A stretch of DNA of 64,000 bases. Origin: a virus. The translations under genes were made by a program, and so were the position numbers. Position 1 is the stretch's first letter. Every line of letters starts with the position of its first letter. The notes under the pieces were generated by a model that had not been told where the DNA came from, did no database searches, and saw only the letters and a program-made list of their open reading frames with translations. The stretch covers positions 102,717-166,716 of IMG/VR virus record IMGVR_UViG_3300035698_018106. One strand, given 5' to 3'. This document shows positions 6,448 to 29,998 of this stretch, piece by piece.

Positions 6448-6481
6448 ACAAAGTAGTTTATTTTATATATCCAATAAAAAA

Positions 6482-6526: not shown

Positions 6527-9076
6527 TTAACCACACCTTGAAAAACTACAAGATGTACAATGAACACACCCTTCTTCTCTTATTAAATCAGCTTTACAAT
6601 CAGGACATTTCTCTTCTAATTTTACAGATTCTTCATATCTGCTCAAGTATCTCCTAACAACTGATGAAAAAGAAGTAATATTTTCATCTATTTTTTTAAT
6701 TACATTATTAACATGAGATATAGGGGCACCATGACGCAATAACATAGAGGCAGTTAACGTTAATATTTTAAACTCAATTCTATCTGCGGCTATTTGAAGT
6801 TCTTCTATTTCAAATTCACCATTAATAAACTTATAATGTCCTTTTTTAACTTTGATAATCTTACCTGTTGTGTTTTTAAGACTTGGAGGATTCTCAAACC
6901 CCATTATTTCATAAGGTCTATTAGTTCCAGGCCATTTACCTATAATAACAGCAAAATCTCTTCCATCTGCTTTAGCAGCATAATAATCTGCTTCTAATTC
7001 TTTAGGTCTTTTTGGTGCATTTGATTCTGGAAATTCTTCTATTTCATTTGTTTCTTCTTTTTTACTTAATATAACACCTGTTCTAGATCCTTCTCTATAA
7101 ATAGTGCAACCTTTGCATCCGGCTTTCCAAGCTTCAAAGTATATATCATTAACTTCTTTCTTAGTTGTTTGTGATGGTAAATTATGAGTTACTGAGATTG
7201 AATGGTCAATCCATTTCTGAATAACACCTTGCATTCTTACTTTTTCTAAATAATCAATTTCATGAGATTCAGATCCTGCCCAAGGAGATTCTTTTATAAT
7301 ATCATTTAAATTAGATTCAGATAAACCATTAAGATAAATATCAACATCAATTATTTCTTTTCCTTCTTTAGTAGTTTTATACCATTCTAAGAATGTAGTA
7401 TGTAAAACATTAAATTCTTCCCATGAATCACCATTTTCATCAACAAAATCAATTTTAACAGTAGGATCATTAGGATTAACTTTTTTCCTTCGTAATGATA
7501 TAATTTTAAATACAGGCTCTATACCTGAAGTGGTTTGAGATGCTATTGCTAATGTACCAGTTGGAGCAATAGATAATGAAGCGATATTTCTTCTACCATA
7601 TTTTATATAATCCTCATATTCTGCAGTACTAAAATTAGCAGAAATAATTCTATTAATGAATGGATTATTAGATTCTTTATCGTAATTCCATATAGGAAAT
7701 GCTCCTCTTTCTTTTGCTAATTGAACAGTTTCTTTATAACAACTAACAGCTAGATTTTTAAATATTTTATCGATGAATTTAGTAGATTCTTTAGATCCAT
7801 ATCGCATACCTAATTTAGCTAGCATATCACCTAGTCCTAATACACCAATACCGGTTCTTCTTCCATTTCTTAGCACAGTCAAAACATTATTCCATGTTTC
7901 CAACTCAACTCTTTTTAATAGTTTAGCTTCCGGATCTTTTTTAATTTTTGCTAAAATCTTCTCTATTTTTTCTTCTTCTAATGATACAATATCATCCATA
8001 GTACGTTGAGCAAATCTAGCAGTTTTTTCTAATTTAGCCCAATCTATTTTAGCATTTTTCTTAAATGGATTTTTAACATGATTTGATAAATTAAGTGATC
8101 CTAATCTACATGAATCGTAAGATGACAAAGGAACTTCGCCACATGGATTTGTTCCTTTAGTTTCGAATCCTAAATCTGCATAACAATCTGATGGAGATTC
8201 GGATATTATTGAATCCCAAAATAAAATGCCTGGTTCTGCATTTTTATGGGCCATTTCAATAGTTTTATCCCATAATTCTTTGGCTTTTATCCTTTTTATA
8301 TACATACCATTATCTAATTTATGAATAGCATCATATGGTGTTTGTATATCAATTTTAGGTTGTTTGTTTGTTGTTGGCCAATGTAGAATATAATCTTGAT
8401 CTTGTTCAACAGCTTTCATAAACTCATCAGTTACTTTAAGAGAAACATTAGCTCCAGTAACTTTAGATAAATCCGCCTTTTTAATAACAAATGTAGGGGA
8501 ATCTGGATGATTAACATGCATACTAATCATTAATGCTCCCCTCCTACCGTCTTGTGCAACTTCTCTAGTTGTGTTTGAATATCTATCCATAAATGAAGGA
8601 GCGCCGGTTGAAGATTGGGCTGAGTTATTAACATAACTGCCTATAGGTCGAAGATTTTCTATAGTAATACCAACACCTCCTCTTCTTTTCATTAATTGTG
8701 CAATTATTTCATCAATATTAATAATTGCGCCATAAGAATCAGAGTTATTATCTATAAAAAAACAATTTCCAAGAGATGACATTTGGTAATTATTTCCTAA
8801 CCCAAATAATATAGACCCTCCATAAATGAAATTTCCAAATCCTTTTAAATTATCATATATCTCTTCTTTATTAAGAGGGTGTGGATATTCTTGTTCTTTC
8901 CTAAAAATCTCATTTGTTATTCTATTAATAGTATTATCAGGCATTAATTCTATAAACTTTCCTTTTTCTTTAAGTGCATACTTATTAATCCAAACTTGTG
9001 TTGCTAAATTATCACCCTTAAAATAAGGTAAAGTAGCATCATTAAGTTGATCAATTGTATAGGTTTCATTAGTCAT
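6527..9076 (-). CDS. nrdJ: ribonucleotide reductase, class II (adenosylcobalamin-dependent, monomeric NrdJ-like) with a C-terminal Zn ribbon
   Basis: 849 aa. Active-site motif TNPCGEVPLSSYDSCRLGSLNL (the class II NPCGE...CxLGSxNL pattern). Glycine-rich GGVGI segment. C-terminal CPDCKADLIREEGCVHCTSCSFSRCG. Confidence 0.8.
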   Translation of the reverse strand: MTNETYTIDQLNDATLPYFKGDNLATQVWINKYALKEKGKFIELMPDNTINRITNEIFRKEQEYPHPLNKEEIYDNLKGFGNFIYGGSILFGLGNNYQMSSLGNCFFIDNNSDSYGAIINIDEIIAQLMKRRGGVGITIENLRPIGSYVNNSAQSSTGAPSFMDRYSNTTREVAQDGRRGALMISMHVNHPDSPTFVIKKADLSKVTGANVSLKVTDEFMKAVEQDQDYILHWPTTNKQPKIDIQTPYDAIHKLDNGMYIKRIKAKELWDKTIEMAHKNAEPGILFWDSIISESPSDCYADLGFETKGTNPCGEVPLSSYDSCRLGSLNLSNHVKNPFKKNAKIDWAKLEKTARFAQRTMDDIVSLEEEKIEKILAKIKKDPEAKLLKRVELETWNNVLTVLRNGRRTGIGVLGLGDMLAKLGMRYGSKESTKFIDKIFKNLAVSCYKETVQLAKERGAFPIWNYDKESNNPFINRIISANFSTAEYEDYIKYGRRNIASLSIAPTGTLAIASQTTSGIEPVFKIISLRRKKVNPNDPTVKIDFVDENGDSWEEFNVLHTTFLEWYKTTKEGKEIIDVDIYLNGLSESNLNDIIKESPWAGSESHEIDYLEKVRMQGVIQKWIDHSISVTHNLPSQTTKKEVNDIYFEAWKAGCKGCTIYREGSRTGVILSKKEETNEIEEFPESNAPKRPKELEADYYAAKADGRDFAVIIGKWPGTNRPYEIMGFENPPSLKNTTGKIIKVKKGHYKFINGEFEIEELQIAADRIEFKILTLTASMLLRHGAPISHVNNVIKKIDENITSFSSVVRRYLSRYEESVKLEEKCPDCKADLIREEGCVHCTSCSFSRCG

Positions 9077-9118: not shown

Positions 9119-10555
9119 TTAAATAGTAGCTTTTAATCTTCGTTCTTTAATTTTTTGCAATTCATCCATCTCAATATCTGCTCTTTGAGATGTCTTTTTA
9201 GCCACTTTTCGTTGAGCATAAAAGTTAGCTAATATTTCTGGTATTAATGGTTCAAATGACGCGTCAAAAACAGCTCCAGATGAACATTTTATTTGATTAT
9301 CATTAGTTTTATAAAGTTTATCTTTGGTTATAAAATTCTCTATAGATATCATAAATTGTCTCATGATAGAAGGATAAAGAGATGCAAAGTCAAAAGAAGC
9401 TACCCAACCATATAAACCAGGTACAGGCTCAAATACAAAAGCTCCTTCGAATTGTTCTCTTTGTTTCTTATCCCATATTTTCGGAAATACTTGTTTCCTT
9501 TTATATGCATATCTAGATAAAGTGGCTTCCAACATTTGTATAGGAGAAAATGCATTCATAGCTTCAACCTGAGTAATATTTCCAAGTCCTAAGAAGGTAC
9601 TCATGGTTTTCAACTTTTCGTCCATTAATTCAACAAGAACAGAATCAATAGCATTATAGAAAACATATAATTCATAATCTTTATTAAACAATTCTTGAAA
9701 TGTTCCACCATATTTAACTTTTCTAATTCCGGTAGCTGCTTCAGCCACAAAATCTAATGTATTATTTTCCTTTACATCAATTGTTCTATCCCATTTCATA
9801 TAAATGGACATATAATCAACAATTAATTTATGTTGAGGAAGCATGATAGTCTTTGTTTTACCTCTGTCTTTTATTCTGTGTTCATACCATTGTCCGGTGG
9901 GTGACATCCAAGATATATCCATTCCTAATCTTTTTGTACATCTATTATAAATATACAACCAATCATATCCCCAAAAATTCCACCCTGTTATAAGAGGTGC
10001 TGTTCTAGCATAATTATATAACCAATCATATAACATATCAGCTTCATTATCATATTGTTTATAAACAAATTTATATTGTCTATCGTATTTGTCAATATGT
10101 TTATTAATGCTTTTTTCTATTCTATCGCATTCTTCACCCGATAAAGGTTTTAAACCAAATACTATGATATCCGGATATCTAACCCATGATATTGAATTAA
10201 TTCTATTTTTTGCCTCATCAGCTCCTGGAAATCCTTCATCAGTAACATCTACTTCAATATCACAAGCATATAATTTAGGGAGATTACGTTCGAATAAATG
10301 TTTTGTGTTAGCTTCGCCTGCATCCATAAAAAATTCTTGAATTCTGTGTTTATCAAGAAATTGTGATGGTCTTTTTGAAACTGGTTTATTGTCCCATGAT
10401 TTAATACCAGGAACAGCTTTACTTTGTTGATTAGTATATGAATAAGAATATTGGTGGTTTGAGGGTATAGCTAATTGAGAAAAAGCTACTTCACCTTCTT
10501 TATTAATGTATGAGACGACCATACGTCCTTGTCTTTGTTCTATATTTATTACCAT
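9119..10555 (-). CDS. DNA polymerase, family B, T4 gp43-like: N-terminal fragment (3'-5' exonuclease domain through polymerase motif A) only
   Basis: 478 aa, collinear with T4 gp43 residues ~100-470. Matches: LYACDIEV (Exo I; T4 VANCDIEV), ITGWNFWGYDWLYIYNR (T4 FTGWNIEGFDVPYIMNR), FYNAIDSVLV (Exo II; T4 YNIIDVESV), FEGAFVFEP (T4 FPGAFVFEP) and SFDFASLYPSIMRQ (motif A; T4 SFDLTSLYPSIIRQ). The ORF stops before the KxxxNSxYG and YGDTDS motifs. The RNR start codon lies 42 nt downstream. Confidence 0.8.
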   Translation of the reverse strand: MVINIEQRQGRMVVSYINKEGEVAFSQLAIPSNHQYSYSYTNQQSKAVPGIKSWDNKPVSKRPSQFLDKHRIQEFFMDAGEANTKHLFERNLPKLYACDIEVDVTDEGFPGADEAKNRINSISWVRYPDIIVFGLKPLSGEECDRIEKSINKHIDKYDRQYKFVYKQYDNEADMLYDWLYNYARTAPLITGWNFWGYDWLYIYNRCTKRLGMDISWMSPTGQWYEHRIKDRGKTKTIMLPQHKLIVDYMSIYMKWDRTIDVKENNTLDFVAEAATGIRKVKYGGTFQELFNKDYELYVFYNAIDSVLVELMDEKLKTMSTFLGLGNITQVEAMNAFSPIQMLEATLSRYAYKRKQVFPKIWDKKQREQFEGAFVFEPVPGLYGWVASFDFASLYPSIMRQFMISIENFITKDKLYKTNDNQIKCSSGAVFDASFEPLIPEILANFYAQRKVAKKTSQRADIEMDELQKIKERRLKATI

Positions 10556-12080: not shown

Positions 12081-13040
12081 TTATTTATCATGTTTTAAAT
12101 AAGGAGTAATAGAATTGGAAATTAAACGAGTTTTATATGATTCAGTTACATTTTCTTTAGAAGTTAAAGTGGCTCTAGGAAGTTGTTTTCCTTCAGCATA
12201 TATAGTTAATATCTGATCTCCTTTAGAATATTTTCTTATAGTATTGTCTGGATTTTTACCATATTTTTCCCAACCACTTTTTTCTATTTTTTCTAATACA
12301 TTTGGAATAGTATCTGTTATAAATACTCTATCAATTCCTGATTTTCCTGGTTTAAATTCATATGATATACCTAAACCATCTAGGGCATCTTTAGCTTTTA
12401 CATCTTTTAATGCTATATCATCTCTTAAAGACGTTTCATTAACTGTATCAGATTTCTTCTTTTTTATTGAAGTTAATGGGTGATCAGGTACGTGTTTAGA
12501 TGCCTTTTGGTAATCATCTAGAGTTTCTATATTAAATGATTCATTTTTATTTTTGAAATCTTGTAATATCGTATTTGTTTTAGAATCCTTTTTCTTGAAT
12601 GGAGGTTTTACACCCATTTTTTTAGCCATCATATTTCCGATTTTATCATATGGATTTATATTATTTTCGTTAGTTTGTGTTCCTATAGAAGCATCACTCC
12701 AACTATCTCCTGAACCAGAAGGTCCATCTGTATTTAATCCAGCTGATGCAGCAGGTACTGCACTTCCCATTCCTGGTGTATTAACAGTAGTTGCCATTGG
12801 AGCAGATACGCCACCAACATCTTCATTCACAGTCCCCATCAATTCATCATCAGATAAATTTATTAATAATCCATCCCATTTTTTTATAGCCATTTCTTTT
12901 GTTTTAGAAGGAGGCCCTTCTGCATGACATATTGAACATGTTATTGCATAACTAGCTTTTTCACCACTTGGCATTTCAGCATCTTTTCCTAGAGAAAATA
13001 CCCAAGTTTCATTTGAATTACAAAAAGGACATTGTTTCAT
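12081..13040 (-). CDS. Lar-like (restriction-alleviation family) Zn-ribbon domain protein with a disordered linker and a C-terminal domain of unknown function
   Basis: 319 aa. N-terminal MKQCPFCNS...CSICHAEGP...EMAIKKWDGL matches the CPFCG...C..C...GP....A...WN pattern of the Lar family. The Gly/Ser/Thr-rich segment is low-complexity. Confidence 0.5.
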   Translation of the reverse strand: MKQCPFCNSNETWVFSLGKDAEMPSGEKASYAITCSICHAEGPPSKTKEMAIKKWDGLLINLSDDELMGTVNEDVGGVSAPMATTVNTPGMGSAVPAASAGLNTDGPSGSGDSWSDASIGTQTNENNINPYDKIGNMMAKKMGVKPPFKKKDSKTNTILQDFKNKNESFNIETLDDYQKASKHVPDHPLTSIKKKKSDTVNETSLRDDIALKDVKAKDALDGLGISYEFKPGKSGIDRVFITDTIPNVLEKIEKSGWEKYGKNPDNTIRKYSKGDQILTIYAEGKQLPRATLTSKENVTESYKTRLISNSITPYLKHDK

Positions 13041-13043
13041 AAA

Positions 13044-13583
13044 TTATTCTATTAATTTTGTTAAAACACCTGATATTTTAGATGCCAAATTTATTGTTTT
13101 TTTATTATCATCATAAAAATATATAGTATCATATTGTTGTGATAATTCTATTAATTCTTTTTCTTTCTCTATAGAAACATCAGTAACTTTATCTTTAATA
13201 CCAACAGTTATAATATTATTCATTGGAATATTAACATTATTTCGTTTAATAAAGGTATAAATAGCCATTTGTGCTTCTTTATTTCTTCCTGTTAGTATAT
13301 ATATTTCTGCATCAGTTCTTATAGATTTCTTATCCATATCTATTTTTTTAAGAAGTGGCCACATTTTATATTTATCTGCTTTTAAAGTAATCCGTGGATC
13401 ATCAAAATCGCTAGTGTCTATAATTTCTCCATCGCTTAGTTCAAATTTATTAAATTCGTCTGGAGTTAAAGATTTAATTTTCTTATTATTTTTATATATA
13501 TGGATTTTCGCTTTAGATTTAACTAATGTTTCATCAAAATCAAATATATAAGCTATTGTCTGAGGTACTATTCTTGCTCGCAT
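13044..13583 (-). CDS. HAD-superfamily phosphatase
   Basis: 179 aa. N-terminal IFDFDETLV is the HAD motif I (DxDxT). Confidence 0.55.
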   Translation of the reverse strand: MRARIVPQTIAYIFDFDETLVKSKAKIHIYKNNKKIKSLTPDEFNKFELSDGEIIDTSDFDDPRITLKADKYKMWPLLKKIDMDKKSIRTDAEIYILTGRNKEAQMAIYTFIKRNNVNIPMNNIITVGIKDKVTDVSIEKEKELIELSQQYDTIYFYDDNKKTINLASKISGVLTKLIE

Positions 13584-13618
13584 AAAAATTAATTATATAA
13601 TTTATTTATTCATAAAAA

Positions 13619-13643
13619 AGGAGACCCTGAGATCTCCTTTTTA
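13619..13643 (-). terminator. rho-independent terminator downstream of the acidic-repeat gene
   Basis: AGGAGA-CCCTGAGA-TCTCCT hairpin with an A-run on one side and a TTTTT run on the other. Confidence 0.5.
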
Positions 13644-13665: not shown

Positions 13666-15201
13666 TTATGCGAAAGGATTCACGCCTTTTTTGCCTGGTT
13701 CTGGTTTTGAATCTTTATCATCAGAATCTTTATCCTCATCGTCATCATCAGAATCTTTATCGTCATCATCAGAATCTTTATCGTCATCATCAGAATCTAT
13801 ACCAGGTTCGTTTGATTCTTCGCCAGTATCTTCTAAACCAGCAAAATCAATTGTATCTTCTACTCCTTCAGCGCCTTCTACTTCAATTTCTCCACCAAAC
13901 ATGTCTTCAATATCAACACCTTTACCTTCTAACCAACTTTTAAGTACTTCCCAATTTTCAGCATTAACTTTTATTTGTTTACCATCTGCGATTGGCTCTT
14001 CATCATCTATTGCAATATCTTCTCCTTCTCCTTCTCCTTTAGCAGGAACTTCATCTATAACTTCTTCTTCACCTGGTATTTCAGTAGATACTTCTTCATC
14101 ATCTTCCCCAAATGTTTCTAAATCACCCATACTAAATTCATCATCTTCATCATCTTCAGTAAGATTAGGTATCATAGCTTTTTCTTCTTTTTCCATACCT
14201 GTAACAGATTCTTCAATTTCTGGAAGGTCACTTGTTTCGCTAGCATCTTCAGTTTCGCCATCAATGCCCCCATCAAGATTTAAATCAAAATCATCTATAT
14301 CATCTCCACCTTCTTCTCCATCAATAGGTGCTAAAACATCAAGTCCTCCACCTTCTTCGCCATCAATAGGTGCTAAATCATCTGATTGATCTATTACTTC
14401 TTCAGCTTCAACACCTAATTCAGTTAATTCACTTATAGCTTCCTCTATATCATCAACAGTTATAATAAATTCGGTTATCTCCACTCTATCATCCGAATCT
14501 GCATCCGTATCTAGATCAGTATCTAGATCTTTATCATCATCGTCATCAGAATCTTTATCATCGTCATCAGAATCTTTATCATCGTCGTCAGAATCTTTAT
14601 CATCGTCATCAGTATCTACATCAGTATCTACATCAGTATCTACATCAGTATCTACATCAGTATCTACATCAGAATCTTTATCATCGTCATCTTTATCTTC
14701 TTCATTTAGCTTAGTTAAACGTTTAGCTTTTATTTGTTCAACTAAAGCTCTGATACGAGCTTCTCTTTGCTCTTCTTCATTAAGTTGACTTTCTGATTTT
14801 TCCTTTTTTTGTATTACGGATTTAACTTCTTTTTCTTCATGAAGTTTTCCTTCTTCAATTCTAGCAGTTCTTTCTAATAATCGTTGTCCTAATTTAGATA
14901 ATTTATAAGACACTAAACCATTTTTATTTTCAACCATAAAGAAATTAGCATTTCTTTTTAGCCACATGTTAGCTGCAGCATTAGGATTTTTAGAAGTTTC
15001 ATTTAAACCAGCTATAAATCTCTTAAGACTACCTCTTGTAACTTTTTTACTTTCAGATACAAAGTTTAAAACTTGATCTCTTAAAGGAGCTCTAGATCCA
15101 ACAACTACAGGTTGTTTATTCCCATATTTTCTTGTTAAAGTAATAGCTTTATTCTCGTTAAGATACTGACCTAAACTTGTCTGTACATACATTTTTTTCA
15201 T
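13666..15201 (-). CDS. hyper-acidic tandem-repeat protein. It has an N-terminal basic domain followed by ~370 aa of D/E-rich repeats (DTDV x5, DDDDKDS x7).
   Basis: 511 aa. The N-terminal ~140 aa are basic (K/R-rich). The remainder is dominated by Asp/Glu, with repeat blocks at both ends encoded by exact DNA tandem repeats. Confidence 0.6.
   Translation of the reverse strand: MKKMYVQTSLGQYLNENKAITLTRKYGNKQPVVVGSRAPLRDQVLNFVSESKKVTRGSLKRFIAGLNETSKNPNAAANMWLKRNANFFMVENKNGLVSYKLSKLGQRLLERTARIEEGKLHEEKEVKSVIQKKEKSESQLNEEEQREARIRALVEQIKAKRLTKLNEEDKDDDDKDSDVDTDVDTDVDTDVDTDVDTDDDDKDSDDDDKDSDDDDKDSDDDDDKDLDTDLDTDADSDDRVEITEFIITVDDIEEAISELTELGVEAEEVIDQSDDLAPIDGEEGGGLDVLAPIDGEEGGDDIDDFDLNLDGGIDGETEDASETSDLPEIEESVTGMEKEEKAMIPNLTEDDEDDEFSMGDLETFGEDDEEVSTEIPGEEEVIDEVPAKGEGEGEDIAIDDEEPIADGKQIKVNAENWEVLKSWLEGKGVDIEDMFGGEIEVEGAEGVEDTIDFAGLEDTGEESNEPGIDSDDDDKDSDDDDKDSDDDDEDKDSDDKDSKPEPGKKGVNPFA
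13739..13801. repeat. 21-bp tandem repeat x3 (unit cgtcatcatcagaatctttat) inside the acidic-protein CDS
   Basis: Direct reading. Encodes DKDSDDD repeats. Confidence 0.8.
14531..14607. repeat. 21-bp tandem repeat x~3.5 (unit catcgtcatcagaatctttat). A second array of the same family lies in the same CDS.
   Basis: Direct reading. Confidence 0.8.
14611..14670. repeat. 12-bp perfect tandem repeat x5 (agtatctacatc) encoding (DTDV)5
   Basis: Direct reading. Confidence 0.9.
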
Positions 15202-15281
15202 ATTGTTAACATTAATTTTATAATTTAATTTATATATTCATTTAAGTATTAATACTTTTGATAGTAAAGTGTAACATTGAT

Positions 15282-16349
15282 TTAACTTGATGCGATTGAA
15301 TTACTTGGCCATGATTCTTCCATATCATCTTCAATAAACTCATTATAATTTAATTTATCAATAATTTCTACCTTATTATAAGTCTTTCCTAAAAATTTAA
15401 TGATATCCATTTCATCATATTCAGGATCATATGAAATTTTCTCAAATGTATCAGAATTTCCTTTTTTTACATGACCAAACCATTCACCATCAGGAGATAC
15501 TTTATAAATTTTTCCTATAAAATTATTTTTACCATCATCTATCTTTACATAAAAAACATAATCATTTTCTATATAATTGTTCTCATCTCTTTTTTCTTGA
15601 CCAACTAATTCAACATATGCTTCAGATAAATCATAAAAACTATCTGTTGCCATAGGATTAGTAACATCTATATTAATTTTTTCGTTTTTAGCTTCTTGAA
15701 TTCTTTTACATATAGAAGTTAGCTCTTCTTTAGATCCATTAATTTTCAAATAAGCATACTCATCATATAGTTCTTCTAATAAACTTGGATTATTATCTGA
15801 TATTAAAATTGATTCATTTGGAGGGGGTATAACAGAAGATTGGTCAGTTCCAGGTTGTGGTTGCGTTTTGGCTTGTTGAGCTAATGTTTCAGCCTCTTTT
15901 TGTTGTTGAGCTACTCCTGCTTTTTGTTCTATTTCTGCCATAGCTTTCTGAATAGGAATTTTAGCATTTTGTATATCGGCAACTTGTTTTTGTAAAGCAT
16001 TTATTTGCGTATCTTTATCAAGAAGTTGTTTTTGCCCACTAGCGTATTGTTGCATTAAAGCTGGATCTGTTATGGCTACATCTTCATTTATTTTTTTCAT
16101 ATCGTTTAATTCTTTTAATTCTTTTAATAGTTCTTGGAGTTGGTCTTGGTCTCTCCAATCATGACCCTTTCTATTATCATGATTAAAGTCTTTAATTAAT
16201 TGATCAGCCTTAGATGAATCAATTTTAATTTCCTCTAAACCATCCGGACCTGATATATCATACTTTTTATAATAATGGTCAGCAAAAGACGTCAATTGAT
16301 CAGGATTTAAGTCATTTTTATGTGCTAAATCTATTATTTTTATTTTCAT
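15282..16349 (-). CDS. hypothetical protein with a central Gln-rich coiled coil
   Basis: 355-aa ORF, 1 nt from the downstream gene. No motif recognised. Confidence 0.45.
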   Translation of the reverse strand: MKIKIIDLAHKNDLNPDQLTSFADHYYKKYDISGPDGLEEIKIDSSKADQLIKDFNHDNRKGHDWRDQDQLQELLKELKELNDMKKINEDVAITDPALMQQYASGQKQLLDKDTQINALQKQVADIQNAKIPIQKAMAEIEQKAGVAQQQKEAETLAQQAKTQPQPGTDQSSVIPPPNESILISDNNPSLLEELYDEYAYLKINGSKEELTSICKRIQEAKNEKINIDVTNPMATDSFYDLSEAYVELVGQEKRDENNYIENDYVFYVKIDDGKNNFIGKIYKVSPDGEWFGHVKKGNSDTFEKISYDPEYDEMDIIKFLGKTYNKVEIIDKLNYNEFIEDDMEESWPSNSIASS

Positions 16350-16350
16350 A

Positions 16351-18186
16351 TTATGATATTATTTTTCGTTCAGTTTCTGGTAAATTACTAGGTTCAAATT
16401 GAGTAATTATAGAACCTTCCCATGTTCTATATTCATTTATAATACTATCATAAAAATTATGAATTGCTTTCGGCGTTATTTCCATAAATAATGAACCATT
16501 TCCATCTTCAATTGCTCTATATGCTGGTAATTTATCTTTATTATCCATAGCGCCAATATTAAATTCAGATAAAACATTAAGTTTACCTCCCATAATTTCT
16601 TCTTCAAAAAATAATTGCAAAGACATATCCGATTCTTTACCCTTATCTGTAAAGAATATTAATGGTTCGTAATGTGGTCTAACAAATTCAAATATTTCTT
16701 TAAGACTCCATGATTCTAACATCATAAAAGAAGGAATAAGCGATTTATTAAAGTTAGATAAAGATCTCATTTGAGCTTTTATTGCTTCATTACTTAAATG
16801 AAAATCTGATCCTTTGAGATCTTTTTCTCCACTAACTGCAGCTATTATAACTGGAACATTCCATTGATTATGTATTTGTTCTATATTTGTCATTTGAGCA
16901 CTAGTGAATGGTGTAAATTCAGTAAGATATATAGCTACTCTATCTTCACCTTGAGGTACTTCTCTAGGATTTGGTACAAAAGCATTTTGAATAGAAGAAA
17001 TAACTCTCATATTATCGATATCATTAGGTTGACGTCTTTTAAGAGTTTTAACTGTAATATTATCAGATCTTCTTTCATTTATAGATTCATTTATAAAATC
17101 TATTGAATTACGCTCTTCATTTGTTAAATCAGATATTCTATCTACAAAATTATTAAATTTAGTAACTATAGATTCTGATAATAATCCATATGGTTTTTTA
17201 TATTTTCTAAATGATGAAAGTATTACTCTATATAATGCTTCATAAATAGGATCTTCATTAATTAAATTAAGTGCTTTTTCATTTTTAATGAATTTTTTAT
17301 TTAATTTGCCAATATTATTATATTGAGGTGAAGTTAAATATTTTGGTTCTAATCCTTCTGCTATTTGTTCTGTTTTACAGTATTCTACAAATATATCACT
17401 AACTATTTCAATATACATTTCTGAAAGAGTTTCGGATTGTATATTCGGGAAAGAATAATCATTGACAAATTCAGTTAAACTTAATAATACGATATCATAA
17501 AAATCTCTAGAAGAATGTTGTTTTTGATAAGCTTCATTTAATAGTTTGAATTCATAAGAAAGTACTTGTAATAAAGATTTTTTAGATTTAATAACTATAC
17601 CTTCTATAATATCTTCTCCTGAATATGATAATCCGAAAGTTTTAGAAACTAATTCACTTAATGTATCATATTTACAATCATCATAACTTTGAGTATCATA
17701 ATCAATTAAACATTGTTTTTGTTCTTCATTTAATTTCCCTTCAAATAAAACTGGTGGTCTACCCATGCAAAGTATTCCAGCCCATTCATTTATTTCATTA
17801 TAATTATAAGATTCTATTATCTTTCCATTTTCTCTTTTAGTAATATCTGTTAACACATATTTGGGTAAGTTTGTATATGGTATTCTATGAGGTCGTTCAA
17901 TAGGAGTATATGCAATTCCAAATCTTATACCTTCTGGAATAAATGTATCATCTATTATAATAGGTATTTCTATTAAGGCGGATTCCCATATATCATTTAA
18001 TGTTCTTTCAACTAATGTTATTTCAGAATTATCTTTTTTAAAGAAAATAATTTCTCCATCTACTTTTTCAAAGAGGATTCTAAATGTATCTAGTTTTTCG
18101 GATATAACTATCTCATCATTTAGTACTTTGTCAACGTAGTTTCGTCCTTTTTTTTCTAAGACCTGACTAATCGTATTTAATCCCAT
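16351..18186 (-). CDS. Rnl1-like RNA ligase nucleotidyltransferase domain (N-terminal) followed by additional domains, including a degenerate cytidylyltransferase-like segment
   Basis: 611 aa. ILFEKVDGEI is a motif I (KxDG) candidate at ~residue 41. EDIIEGIVIKSKKS at ~195 matches Rnl1 motifs IV and V (T4 Rnl1 [20 protein letters not shown]). The C-terminal RVAIYLTEFTPFTSAQM...NVPVIIAAVSGEKD aligns with the N-terminus of the 621-aa paralogue (IIIMIPGGFKPTTGAHL...NVKEVKVIVGPKERD). Confidence 0.45.
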   Translation of the reverse strand: MGLNTISQVLEKKGRNYVDKVLNDEIVISEKLDTFRILFEKVDGEIIFFKKDNSEITLVERTLNDIWESALIEIPIIIDDTFIPEGIRFGIAYTPIERPHRIPYTNLPKYVLTDITKRENGKIIESYNYNEINEWAGILCMGRPPVLFEGKLNEEQKQCLIDYDTQSYDDCKYDTLSELVSKTFGLSYSGEDIIEGIVIKSKKSLLQVLSYEFKLLNEAYQKQHSSRDFYDIVLLSLTEFVNDYSFPNIQSETLSEMYIEIVSDIFVEYCKTEQIAEGLEPKYLTSPQYNNIGKLNKKFIKNEKALNLINEDPIYEALYRVILSSFRKYKKPYGLLSESIVTKFNNFVDRISDLTNEERNSIDFINESINERRSDNITVKTLKRRQPNDIDNMRVISSIQNAFVPNPREVPQGEDRVAIYLTEFTPFTSAQMTNIEQIHNQWNVPVIIAAVSGEKDLKGSDFHLSNEAIKAQMRSLSNFNKSLIPSFMMLESWSLKEIFEFVRPHYEPLIFFTDKGKESDMSLQLFFEEEIMGGKLNVLSEFNIGAMDNKDKLPAYRAIEDGNGSLFMEITPKAIHNFYDSIINEYRTWEGSIITQFEPSNLPETERKIIS

Positions 18187-18270: not shown

Positions 18271-18885
18271 TTATTTTTTTCTCCTAATATAGACTTTTGG
18301 TTTATGTGATTCATTAAGATCTTCATCTTTATCACAATTTTCTTCTATTTCTTCGTCTTTATCTATTTCTTCGTCTGATGAACTTTCTGATAATTCAGTT
18401 CTAATTTTTAAAATGAATTCATCTAATGAACCAGCAAATGCTTCTGTAATAATATCAGAAATTACAGTTGGAGATAATACATCTTTAATATTATCACCTT
18501 TAACTTGACTATACATTTCGTCAATAACAGTATAAAGTTTATATTTGAGATCTGTTTGTCTCATTGTTTCGTTTAACAATATAGTAGCTTTACCTTTTAA
18601 GAAATTCTTCTTTTGAAGAGGGGTTGAATTCTCAGTTAATGTAGTTTCTCGTTTCTGGAGAAAATTCATTCCGGATTCGCTTAAGCCTGATTCTTCTGAC
18701 CAATATTTTCCTAATTCAGTAAGAAATGCAACTTGGCTTTTCTCATTTAAATCATGAATTGCTGTTAACTTATAATGTTCTAAAAGTGAAGCGTATATTT
18801 TTTTAAAATCTCCAAGAATATTACTCTCGTGTAATTTTTCGCTCTCATTAACTTTTCGTTTATATACAGTTGAAAATTTTCGCAT
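18271..18885 (-). CDS. hypothetical protein with an acidic C-terminus
   Basis: 204-aa ORF. Confidence 0.45.
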   Translation of the reverse strand: MRKFSTVYKRKVNESEKLHESNILGDFKKIYASLLEHYKLTAIHDLNEKSQVAFLTELGKYWSEESGLSESGMNFLQKRETTLTENSTPLQKKNFLKGKATILLNETMRQTDLKYKLYTVIDEMYSQVKGDNIKDVLSPTVISDIITEAFAGSLDEFILKIRTELSESSSDEEIDKDEEIEENCDKDEDLNESHKPKVYIRRKK

Positions 18886-18952: not shown

Positions 18953-19270
18953 TTATTTTTTCTTAATAGAATGAATACTTTCTATCATATAATCTTCATC
19001 CATTCCTAAATTATAGTAATCTTCAAAATCTTCTTGTTGTCTAGGTGACTTATCTTTTAACTCAGGAGCCTCAATATCAGATTGTCTAGCCATATCCATA
19101 ACCATTTCAATGTTTTCCATAAAAAATTCAAATTCATCTTCTTCAAGTTGAGTTCTCATATAATCAACTACAACTTTATAATCAGCTGTTTTATCAGCTG
19201 ATTTATTCATATCATAGAATTCTATGATATCCTCTACAAAATTTTGTAATATTTCTTTTACTCTTCCCAT
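18953..19270 (-). CDS. hypothetical acidic protein
   Basis: 105-aa ORF. Confidence 0.4.
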   Translation of the reverse strand: MGRVKEILQNFVEDIIEFYDMNKSADKTADYKVVVDYMRTQLEEDEFEFFMENIEMVMDMARQSDIEAPELKDKSPRQQEDFEDYYNLGMDEDYMIESIHSIKKK

Positions 19271-24413: not shown

Positions 24414-24640
24414 TGTTTTAAGTCTTTTTAGTTTTTAAGATTCTAAATTTTTTAGAATTCTAAGTTTATTAATATTTGTAATCTTTGTAATCTTTTAAGG
24501 TACCTTTTAGATTGTTTACTATAGTTTATATATCAAAAAAGCAGTAAAGTTTTTTAACTTTTTGTTAAAGTTTTACTACCTCTAAGTTATTACAATCCAA
24601 TACATTAAAATCACATTAACATACTCTTAACACAAAAGAC

Positions 24641-28690: not shown

Positions 28691-29029
28691 TTATCCATGT
28701 ACTACGTAATCTCTAATAGCTCTGGCTCCTTTTTCTGTCATACGACTTTTTGAATCTCCATTATCATCAATATATTTTTCAAAGAAGCCATATTTTAACA
28801 TTATACCATAAAAACCAACAGCACCTTCTCTCATATCTACTATAACAGTCATTAATTCTGTATCAGTTAACACCGGAGTAGCATCCTTTATTAATTTTTG
28901 TTTAATTTTGCCTTCTATAATTTTTATTAACGATTCTTTATTAGCAAATGGAATACTAAGATATTCGTCAAATTCTCCATCTCTTATTCTCTGTTTAATT
29001 CCAGTTAAATATACATCTTTGCTTTCCAT
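28691..29029 (-). CDS. hypothetical protein
   Basis: 112-aa ORF. Confidence 0.45.
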   Translation of the reverse strand: MESKDVYLTGIKQRIRDGEFDEYLSIPFANKESLIKIIEGKIKQKLIKDATPVLTDTELMTVIVDMREGAVGFYGIMLKYGFFEKYIDDNGDSKSRMTEKGARAIRDYVVHG

Positions 29030-29159
29030 AGTTATTCATTTTATTTTATTTATGCAAGATATTTGTATATCAAGTATAAAAATAATGTTTTTAACAATAG
29101 CTTAACATCTTCATATTTAACTGATTTTTAACAATATTTATGAAACTTGTTCCAGAAAG

Positions 29160-29365
29160 TCCATATAAATATTACTTGAGCCCCGTGAAAAGTAATATCT
29201 TTATAGTATAAAGAAAAGAAAGCTGTTAAATAAATTTATTATTTCAGAAAGTTTAACTTAACTTTAACAACAGCTTGGAAACCAAGTTTTAAAAATCCAT
29301 ATAATAATTACTTGAGTTTTTGAAAAAAATGAAAAGTAATTTCTTAGTAAAGAAAAGAATTAAAG
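29160..29365. repeat. Two ~65-bp direct repeats (29160-29222 and 29296-29365), each containing an ATTACTT...AAGTAAT hairpin. A separate AGCTGTT...AACAGCT inverted repeat sits in the spacer. The whole element lies in a 345-bp non-coding region.
   Basis: The unit TCCATATAA(A/T)(T/A)ATTACTTGAG..AAAAGTAAT(A/T)TCTT..AGTA(T)AAAGAAAAGAA occurs twice, 136 bp apart. The spacer contains AGCTGTT(29221-29227)/AACAGCT(29269-29275) and a TTGGAAACCAA mini-hairpin. Confidence 0.7.
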
Positions 29366-29374
29366 AGAATATCT

Positions 29375-29998
29375 TTAAAACCCGAGCTTTTCTATTAGAG
29401 TTTCTATAACAAAATAACTATCTACTAAATCATCTATACCAGGCACGTAATTAGTTTTCTTTTTAAGAGTAGAAGGATCTGTTCTTAATAATTCATTTAA
29501 CTTATTATCTAACACTTTTTCAGAAAAAGCATTTATCATTGAATCCTTTCCTCTCTTATCCTTTCCTGCACAACCTGCAATAGATTTTATTGTTAATGGA
29601 GCGTATGTATATATATTCTCATACCCATAAAGTTCAGATAAACCTCGCACCAAAATATATCTATATCCTGCTAATTGTAATCCAGCATCTCCTTTAGATC
29701 CAAAAGAAGATCCTTCAAATCCTATAATAACTTTTTCATCACCTACTATATCTTTAACTTTATCTATTATTTTATCAGATAAAATAGATGCCATTTGAAC
29801 ATGATATCTAAATTTTTCTGAAGAATCTGTTCCTTTTGGTAATCGTTCTCTATTATCAATGTCAATATTAGCTCTTCCTAATATCTCTATAGATTTTTTA
29901 TCTAATTCTAATGGCCAAAATTTAAAACTCAATTTTCCATCTTTTAATATTGCACATGCAGTTTTATTACATGAAAAATCAAAACCGATATATATCAT
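29375..29998 (-). CDS. RuvC-like Holliday junction resolvase (RNase H fold)
   Basis: 207 aa. MIYIGFDFSCNKTACAIL (RuvC IILGIDPGSRVTGYGVI), VIIGFEGSSF (catalytic Glu region), TIKSIAGCAGKDKRGKDSM (RuvC VKQTVVGIGSAEKSQVQ) and C-terminal GIDDLVDSYFVIE (RuvC DAADALAIAI). Confidence 0.55.
   Translation of the reverse strand: MIYIGFDFSCNKTACAILKDGKLSFKFWPLELDKKSIEILGRANIDIDNRERLPKGTDSSEKFRYHVQMASILSDKIIDKVKDIVGDEKVIIGFEGSSFGSKGDAGLQLAGYRYILVRGLSELYGYENIYTYAPLTIKSIAGCAGKDKRGKDSMINAFSEKVLDNKLNELLRTDPSTLKKKTNYVPGIDDLVDSYFVIETLIEKLGF

Follow-up and report, generated by a model that had tools for sequence, protein, structure and literature searches.

DNA-binding domains that carry very long, polyacidic disordered regions typify eukaryotic chromatin and transcription factors; bacteria and their viruses rarely have them. 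Here, we describe a predicted arrangement of this kind in a minus-strand gene at 13666-15201 of a 64,000-nucleotide (nt) stretch of viral DNA (IMG/VR record IMGVR_UViG_3300035698_018106, positions 102,717 to 166,716), hereafter the window, whose source is a large, AT-rich, uncultivated phage. One described parallel is the delta subunit (RpoE) of Firmicutes RNA polymerase, which likewise joins a small, folded, winged-helix-like N-terminal domain (residues 1-90) to a long acidic, disordered C-terminal region (residues 91-173, net charge -47) that competes with nucleic acids (PMC7749165). A second comes from eukaryotic chromatin proteins: in HMGB1-type proteins and CAF-1, a basic DNA-binding module is joined to an Asp/Glu (D/E) tail whose roles are to contact basic partner proteins and to auto-inhibit DNA binding, and CAF-1 p150 comprises a basic helix (KER), an acidic region (ED) and a winged helix (PMC7261955, PMC10942606). 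A third group consists of the DNA mimics to which the initial annotation had likened the gene product, namely Ocr (T7 gp0.3), a folded homodimer of 116-amino-acid (aa) chains that imitates a bent duplex of 24 base pairs (bp) (PMC3439906, PMC2806950), and ArdA, a compact folded dimer with extensive DNA mimicry (PMC2731889).

The phage protein resembles these systems to different degrees. Compared with delta, its tail is about four times longer, roughly three times more charged (-131) and furnished with conserved, probably ordered modules and tandem DNA repeats; its head is strongly basic, comes with apparent cognate boxes and gave no HARE-HTH match in the Pfam scan described below, and the gene is phage-encoded within a replication block. 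The place of the basic tract between head and tail of delta is taken here by a predicted basic helix, helix H. The likeness to HMGB1 and CAF-1 is architectural only, with neither an HMG box nor homology, and because no HARE-HTH or HMG signal was detected, the protein is a member of neither the delta nor the HMGB1 family. With Ocr and ArdA it shares strong acidity and a plausible competition with DNA for DNA-binding proteins, but it differs from them in its length of 511 aa, its basic, DNA-binding-type head, its compositionally disordered tail and a charge spacing that is not conserved. Winged helices of the MarR/PadR/ArsR and TubR/AspA/F93 types share 8-21% sequence identity with the head, and no family hidden Markov model (HMM) reached its threshold; in contrast to MarR-type proteins and their like, the phage head has an additional N-terminal beta-hairpin arm (KRKY) and no MarR-type dimerisation helix bundle, and the giant acidic tail sets the phage protein apart from all of these regulators. 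By analogy, its functional likeness to delta and HMGB1 would be far greater than that to Ocr and ArdA, and we regard the architecture as an extreme form of the 'DNA-binding head plus acidic tail' theme, not as a new principle.

We tentatively favour the reading that the gene encodes a DNA-binding protein that regulates its own expression and whose disordered, polyanionic tail acts on basic DNA-binding proteins, recruiting them or competing for them in a delta- or HMGB1-like manner. The gene and its flanks are organized as follows.

15207..15278, minus strand: upstream control region, from an alignment (A4) of 15 orthologous upstream regions
13666..15201, minus strand: whole gene, predicted basic winged-helix head plus polyanionic tail, from the list of open reading frames (ORFs), composition and full-length orthologues
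14845..15201, minus strand: N-terminal domain, residues 1-119, predicted winged helix, net basic, from predicted structure
14698..14775, minus strand: predicted basic amphipathic helix H, residues 143-168 (EEQREARIRALVEQIKAKRLTKLNEE), at the head/tail junction, from a local HMM
14488..14697, minus strand: acidic array 1, residues 169-238, from Tandem Repeats Finder (TRF) arrays and composition
14392..14487, minus strand: conserved module A, residues 239-270 (RVEITEFIITVDDIEEAISELTELGVEAEEVI), predicted beta-alpha-beta, from orthologue conservation
13984..14391, minus strand: acidic region 2, residues 271-406, net charge about -53, with short conserved motifs
13873..13980, minus strand: conserved module B, residues 408-443 (KQIKVNAENWEVLKSWLEGKGVDIEDMFGGEIEVEG), predicted beta-alpha-beta-beta, from HMM matches
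13699..13872, minus strand: acidic region 3, residues 444-501, from a TRF array and a conserved motif
13669..13698, minus strand: C-terminal motif PGKKGVNPFA, found in one subclade
13615..13642, minus strand: hairpin followed by a T-run, intrinsic-terminator-like, from a terminator scan (AAAAAGGAGATCTCAGGGTCTCCTTTTTT on the minus strand)

Anatomy of the acidic protein

The ORF starts with ATG, includes the stop codon in its coordinates and encodes 511 aa with a net charge of -116 and an isoelectric point (pI) of 4.05. Residues 1-140 contain 28 Lys/Arg against 13 D/E (net +15, pI 10.2), in agreement with the basic N-terminal domain of about 140 aa that had been claimed from the sequence. Residues 141-511 hold 98 D and 61 E in 371 positions, that is 43% D/E, with a net charge of -131. 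The earlier description of this part as overwhelmingly Asp/Glu was thus somewhat overstated, although the protein is clearly the acidic outlier of the window, with a D/E content of 33.7% against a median of 13.9% for the 57 ORFs. Because the protein stands out in this way and its own head is basic, proteome-wide acidity of the halophile type was ruled out as an explanation.

The head was modelled with AlphaFold2 on 53 family sequences. The predicted elements are helices at residues 39-51, 56-66 and 73-83, a beta-hairpin at 88-101 and a further helix at 103-119, so that the succession of three helices and a beta-hairpin wing that defines a winged helix is present in the model, preceded by a conserved KRKY-type arm. 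The top structural matches of the head are DNA-binding regulators, including TubR and AspA types, and winged helices of the TubR/AspA/RepB_C type occur among its structural and weak Pfam matches; a fold search against BFVD returned generic uncharacterised winged helices and nothing more. HARE-HTH (PF05066) was not among the 25 best-matching Pfam families in any of the 53 members scanned, and the same scan gave a single weak match to Mrr_N. Its net charge of +15 and the conserved RATGTTA boxes at its own promoter suggest that the head may bind DNA, through its third helix and the wing.

At the junction to the tail, the local HMM of helix H, a segment that is probably helical, matches most close family members at an equal relative position. 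Acidic array 1 then reads DDDDKDS - (DVDT)5 - (DDDDKDS)3 - DLDTDLDTDADSDD, with 56% D, a net charge of -38, a strongly disorder-type composition and units that are not conserved in orthologues. In the DNA, the 12-bp unit GATGTAGATACT occurs in five exact copies coding for (DVDT)5 (TRF array at 14607-14677, 5.9 copies, 98% match), and one copy of the 21-bp unit gatgacgatgataaagattct, encoding DDDDKDS, stands before and three stand after it (14536-14617, 3.9 copies, 95% match). A second DDDDKDS array of 21-bp units near the C terminus (TRF array at 13709-13798, 4.3 copies, 82%) is imperfect and contains indels; the tandem repeats had been called exact, which applies to the first two arrays and not to this one. 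On the plus strand, an ORF at 13691-14389 (232 aa, Ser-rich) lies antisense to the acidic repeats and is at risk of being mis-called as a gene. It is an antisense shadow, an artefact of repeat composition, and the minus-strand frame is favoured because it is conserved in orthologues.

Between and behind the arrays, several islands of the tail are conserved. In module A, the pattern KVEITEF..I.V...A..EL is nearly invariant among orthologues and the hydrophobic content of 0.38 is folded-domain-like. Module B has HMM matches in about 48 close clusters, with I.V..W..L..WLE.KG...MFGG invariant. The linker between the two modules ranges from ~5 to ~130 aa across the family, and in members with a short linker A and B together make up ~75 residues with a beta-alpha-beta-beta-alpha-beta pattern. 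The modules may form one small acidic alpha/beta domain that tolerates an acidic insertion of 5-130 aa; the corresponding profile (A3) found no PDB match beyond chance and just weak, scattered matches in Pfam. Acidic region 2 carries two copies of LAPIDGEEGG (14305-14376), DDFDLNLDGG (14266-14295), PEIEESVTGMEKEEKAMIPNL (14161-14223) and DEFSMGDLETFGEDD (14098-14142), motifs that reappear in orthologues, at times in other positions. Acidic region 3 holds TIDFAGLED (13828-13854) in addition to the imperfect DDDDKDS array (13708-13797), and many members show the motif [IV][DS]F.G[LIV].D after module B. The PGKKGVNPFA ending is common to the loci L001 and L012 and the proteins P0016 and P0031. 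The tail thus offers a set of short conserved acidic-hydrophobic motifs, namely DDFDLNLDGG, ESVTGME..PNL, IDFAGLED and the C-terminal PGKKGVNPF. The stretches in between (residues 169-238, 271-406 and 444-501) fall far on the disordered side of a charge-hydropathy plot, which suggests that most of the tail is disordered.

The family, its repeats and its upstream boxes

Searches with the 511-aa protein assigned it to no described family. Scanning Pfam-A (E<=0.01) and PHROG returned 0 families each, and NCBIfam gave no family match; hits to the PRK05901 sigma factor and to SdrC, at 16-19 bits, were discarded as low-complexity noise. Against all PDB chains, phmmer with the full protein produced two chance matches (E>0.5), and the head profile (A2) produced chance matches only. 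Neither the full protein nor its N-terminal 168 aa found anything by tblastn in 50,697 GenBank phage records, even at E<=1, a scan of 185,579 species genomes detected no relative, and a word-indexed protein database yielded few matches, none of them informatively named. No near-identical relative of the window was present in the viral and metagenome collections, where the best relatives reached 64-73% identity and those of the metagenome scan 64-67%.

Searching 1.84 billion representatives with the head profile, in turn, uncovered 277 clusters at 50% identity (62 at E<1e-30), of which about 60 have the acidic architecture. Close members are almost all 450-785 aa long, with 26-38% D/E and a net charge of -54 to -178. 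Distant ones are non-acidic, measure 110-400 aa and contain the domain alone, in tandem or together with DUF5661. Full-length orthologues came from 21 loci (10 viral and 11 metagenome), and the complete ones have 450-767 aa and a net charge of -69 to -154. The family is unnamed in databases and known from metagenomes only.

All orthologues carry in-frame arrays in the corresponding regions, with units that are lineage-specific: DVDT and DDDDKDS here, and elsewhere EEDK; EEEGEEK; EEEG; or DDDK, DTDAEV and DLGDAEVDA. Between the loci L016 and L017, the six differing positions all fall into the tail and include a 4-aa indel, and a 17-aa repeat gain separates L003 from L002; the suggestion that the arrays are hotspots of length variation thereby finds support in related lineages. 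In a 54-kb ENA scaffold (L023), 100 Ns lie inside a (GEEDT)n array of the orthologous gene (~7650-7750), and because this gap interrupts the gene, only a 125-aa C-terminal fragment (P0157) is annotated there. As net charge stays strongly negative while the arrays differ, selection retains charge and approximate length rather than sequence or charge spacing. The regular charge spacing that had been read as a hallmark of DNA mimicry is a by-product of lineage-specific repeats, replaced in orthologues.

A conserved control region lies upstream of the coding sequence. Box 1 (AATGTTA, 15272-15278) is followed by a -35-like element, CAAAAGTATTA, a promoter-like element, GAATATATAA, at ~15230-15240, and box 2, TTAATGTTA, at 15207-15215, five bases ahead of the ATG. 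The two RATGTTA boxes bracket the promoter-like element at fixed spacing, ~39 nt upstream and ~23 nt downstream of it. Across the 15 aligned upstream regions, three blocks, ATGTTA, ATATATA and TAATGTTA, do not vary, and the remainder drifts. The proteins encoded at these loci are just 45-73% identical, yet both RATGTTA boxes are invariant. The composite RATGTTA-N29-35-ATATAWAA is found once in the window (chance expectation ~0.19 per 64 kb) and once in each of 19 out of 23 loci, only upstream of the acidic gene. GAWATATAAA (6 occurrences in the window against 4.5 expected) is uninformative, as is RATGTTA taken by itself; the signal is carried only by the composite and the phylogenetic footprint. 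A scan for the sigma-70 consensus showed no enrichment.

The promoter-like element belongs to a more widespread motif. ATATATAAA(AT) occurs 15 times, with eight of these occurrences in the 8% of DNA that is non-coding, and all eight point to the downstream gene. The intergenic copies of ATATATAAA lie near 6470, 15237, 18911, 19295, 24533, 30490, 46522 (minus strand) and 52602 (plus strand). The motif precedes replication genes, such as that for the single-stranded DNA-binding protein (SSB), as well as tail and baseplate operons (~46522, ~52602), is reminiscent of the T4 late promoter TATAAATA and likely represents a phage promoter class. With a promoter-like motif of its own and a hairpin plus T-run after the stop codon, the acidic gene would form a monocistronic unit.

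Gene neighbourhood and the wider window

The acidic gene occupies a conserved place. The order helicase, 204-aa gene, 611-aa RNA-ligase-like gene, 355-aa gene, acidic gene, polynucleotide kinase (PNK)-like gene, dUTPase, DUF7768, polymerase B and ribonucleotide reductase (RNR) holds across phages whose proteins are 40-70% identical. In a distant phage (L011), the matching slot encodes a 183-aa non-acidic winged-helix protein and is preceded by a 643-aa ligase-like/CTP-transferase-like gene and then a 357-aa gene. The absence of an acidic tail from this protein suggests that the head came first, as the ancestral core, and was extended by the tail as a clade-specific add-on. In the window, the 611-aa protein (16351-18186) has a weakly RNA-ligase-like N terminus, and in its L011 counterpart the C-terminal half is CTP_transf_like and contains a GRFQPFTLGH motif. 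The 611-aa gene and the ~355-aa gene (15282-16349) always precede the winged-helix gene, also in the distant phage (L011, 1648-4652). The three form a conserved trio. A 219-aa protein on a 1009-nt contig (P0001) fuses the winged-helix head, without acidic tail, to a cytidylyltransferase-like fragment; given so short a contig, this could reflect chimeric assembly or genuine domain shuffling with the neighbouring 611-aa gene family.

An adjacent Lar-type gene had been put forward in support of an anti-restriction role. The gene in question, 12081-13040 (319 aa), is separated from the acidic gene by 13044-13583. Its Zn ribbon (12081-12250) scores below curated cut-offs, with 27.7 bits against 28.6 for PF14354 and 28.9 against 39.6 for TIGR03655; a PHROG 599 match (E=1.8e-6) covers residues 1-56 only. 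The ribbon is not kept in orthologues: those in L001, L002 and L005 are without it, and those in L008-L010 have another N-terminal domain. This line of support is therefore weak. The same protein (residues ~80-115) and its orthologues in L001-L010 carry a linear motif, APM(A/S)TLxNTPGMGN(A/V)xP ... GSGD(K/S/I)(W/F), after which a D/E run and a poly-K run frequently come. The motif is also present in P0063, P0078, P0092, P0098, P0103, P0104, P0106 and P0142; it is thus carried by the Lar-like neighbour and, within their tails, by distant non-acidic members of the winged-helix family, which suggests a shared binding partner. A literature search for the NTPGMGN motif found no paper.

Overall, the window has a GC content of 27%. 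Replication and nucleotide-metabolism genes lie at positions 1-25 kb (RNR, polymerase B, dUTPase, PNK-phosphatase-like, helicase, primase and a gp32-like SSB), and tail-fibre and baseplate genes lie at ~41-55 kb. The closest relatives of the family B DNA polymerase (9119-10555) are Lak megaphage polymerases, at just 39% identity. Neither tRNAs nor Rfam families were detected in the window, nor was a paralogue of the winged-helix head or of the A/B module found within it. Two more small proteins of the same block (18271-18885 and 18953-19270) are acidic at the C terminus or overall (for example ...SSSDEEIDKDEEIEENCDKDEDLNES); each gene is preceded by its own ATATATAAA-type motif, and neither matches a family. 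Upstream of the gp32-like SSB gene, a 227-nt gap (24414-24640) contains short repeats (AGATTACAA, twice), a palindrome (TTAAGATTCTAAA/TTTAGAATTCTAA) and a 16-nt inverted repeat at both ends. A second gap, 345 nt of non-coding DNA at 29020-29380, holds two copies of a ~136-nt unit, formed by three co-linear families of direct repeats at a spacing of 136-144 nt, together with several TTGTTAA/GATGTTA-type boxes. It has no match in Rfam and may represent an origin, a regulatory region or a small RNA that escaped annotation.

Readings of the protein and their meaning

In the autoregulatory reading, which we hold tentatively, the basic winged-helix head would bind DNA, at least at its own promoter, and its likeliest targets would be the two invariant RATGTTA boxes. 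A gene-specific operator beside a gene for a basic winged helix makes autoregulation the simplest explanation. The tail of ~345 residues, mostly a disordered polyanion, would serve as a nucleic-acid-like competitor and as a multivalent docking platform. It could fold back onto the basic head and helix H, leading to auto-inhibition, and could bind basic DNA-binding proteins from host or phage, or strip them away, by bulk charge, with the A/B module and the short acidic-hydrophobic motifs supplying specific contacts. Conserved islands within the tail (H, A, B and the short motifs) fit a docking hub better than a rigid mimic, and the retention of charge without spacing is the main argument against an Ocr/ArdA-like rigid mimic and for a polyelectrolyte-type tail. 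What the sequences show are the architecture and its pattern of conservation, the predicted winged helix, repeat turnover at a retained strong negative charge, the constant position in the replication block and the gene-specific boxes; DNA binding, autoregulation, disorder of the tail and the identity of its partners are inferred.

Several observations weigh against this reading. Some other factor may recognise the boxes, or they may serve as promoter or translation elements, and RATGTTA alone is too short to test, with 67 matches in the window against 46 expected, mostly on the coding strand. Disorder of the tail is predicted from composition only, and the charge-hydropathy plot, a crude measure, also puts the winged-helix head marginally among disordered proteins. 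Since its promoter-like motif also precedes tail and baseplate operons, the gene may be expressed late. Finally, the PNK-like and RNA-ligase-like neighbours, which have a counter-defence flavour in T4, may keep an anti-defence role alive.

Such a role would make the tail a nucleic-acid-mimicking decoy that titrates away restriction enzymes, BREX or other defence proteins that bind DNA, a non-homologous analogue of Ocr and ArdA that the winged helix may tether to phage DNA in cis. The extreme negative charge kept across the family, a fast-evolving repeat region compatible with an arms race, the PNK-phosphatase-like and RNA-ligase-like neighbours and the sub-threshold Lar-like Zn ribbon of this phage all speak for it. 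We nevertheless consider it unlikely, as the protein matches neither the Ocr and ArdA families nor any PDB chain, its charge spacing is not conserved, and orthologous neighbours lack the ribbon. The gene moreover belongs to the syntenic core of the replication block, not to the variable early accessory genes, and its distant positional orthologues are entirely without the tail. By an arithmetic estimate, an extended tail would present ~1.2 charges per nm against ~6 for B-DNA, nearer to single-stranded nucleic acid. Taken with the lack of Pfam, PHROG, NCBIfam or PDB matches and the disorder-type composition, the classical Ocr/ArdA-type DNA mimic proposed by the initial annotation is probably not what the gene encodes; a generic role as nucleic-acid-like polyanion is the part of that idea that survives as plausible. 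Equally improbable, in our view, is a DNA-tethered polyelectrolyte, in which the head would sit on phage DNA and the tail would act as an anionic brush or coacervate hub with the many poly-lysine-tailed proteins that these phages have, building a protected replication compartment or shielding phage DNA in cis against nucleases and nucleoid proteins of the host, with a titration-sensitive autoregulatory loop at the RATGTTA boxes. In bacterial viruses, the protein would then correspond to the acidic disordered regions that eukaryotic chromatin chaperones carry.

The remaining explanations assign the head or the gene to other machineries. As a strict delta-like RNA polymerase subunit, the protein would bind polymerase rather than DNA through its head, and the tail would clear nucleic acids from the polymerase or redirect the host enzyme to phage promoters. 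The parallel succession of folded N-terminal domain, basic tract and acidic disordered region (PMC7749165) and the distinct ATATATAAA promoter class, which suggests modified transcription, agree with this; the missing HARE-HTH signal, with one weak Mrr_N match in its stead, the DNA-binding regulators among the top structural matches and a strongly basic head with gene-specific conserved boxes point to DNA instead and leave the idea distinctly unlikely. A further possibility is a virion-associated protein, be it part of the scaffold or prohead core, or an internal protein that is packaged, and perhaps injected, along with the DNA; the packaged internal protein had also been raised by the initial annotation. 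Acidic, repeat-rich sequences are frequent in scaffold and core proteins, the gene has its ATATATAAA promoter-like motif in common with the tail and baseplate operons, and a monocistronic unit with a strong terminator is compatible with high expression. That motif is no marker of structural genes, because it also precedes the SSB gene; PHROG and Pfam returned no structural match, the nearest structural genes (tail/baseplate) are ~16 kb off, the gene lies inside the conserved replication block, and a sequence-conserved basic winged helix with cognate-looking boxes would be unexpected in a scaffold. With no positive evidence on its side, we deem a virion role very unlikely. More doubtful still is a replication initiator or an origin- or centromere-binding adaptor, whose winged helix would bind iteron-like repeats of the RATGTTA type (compare RepA, TubR and AspA) and whose tail would recruit replisome or segregation proteins. 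In line with it are the structural and weak Pfam matches to winged helices of the TubR, AspA and RepB_C types, the tandem winged helices of some distant members, as in Rep initiators, the ~21-22-nt distances between box 1, the -35-like element, the promoter and box 2, and the location inside the replication module. Just two clear boxes exist, though, both at the gene's own promoter, with no such iteron cluster elsewhere in the 64 kb, and no specific homology to any initiator was found. Part of the probability is assigned to none of these readings.

On the practical side, the arrays break assemblies, as the scaffold gap in L023 illustrates, and leave the gene open to mis-calling. For the biology of these viruses, the findings define an acidic-architecture family, without a name in databases, that holds a constant position in the replication block of large AT-rich phages, all of them uncultivated. 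If the tail is a competitor or docking hub, as in the autoregulatory reading we favour, the family would offer a tractable system for asking how bulk charge and short motifs let phages reorganise DNA-protein interactions. If true, it would also offer a system for how selection keeps charge during repeat turnover and for how an autoregulatory balance is maintained.

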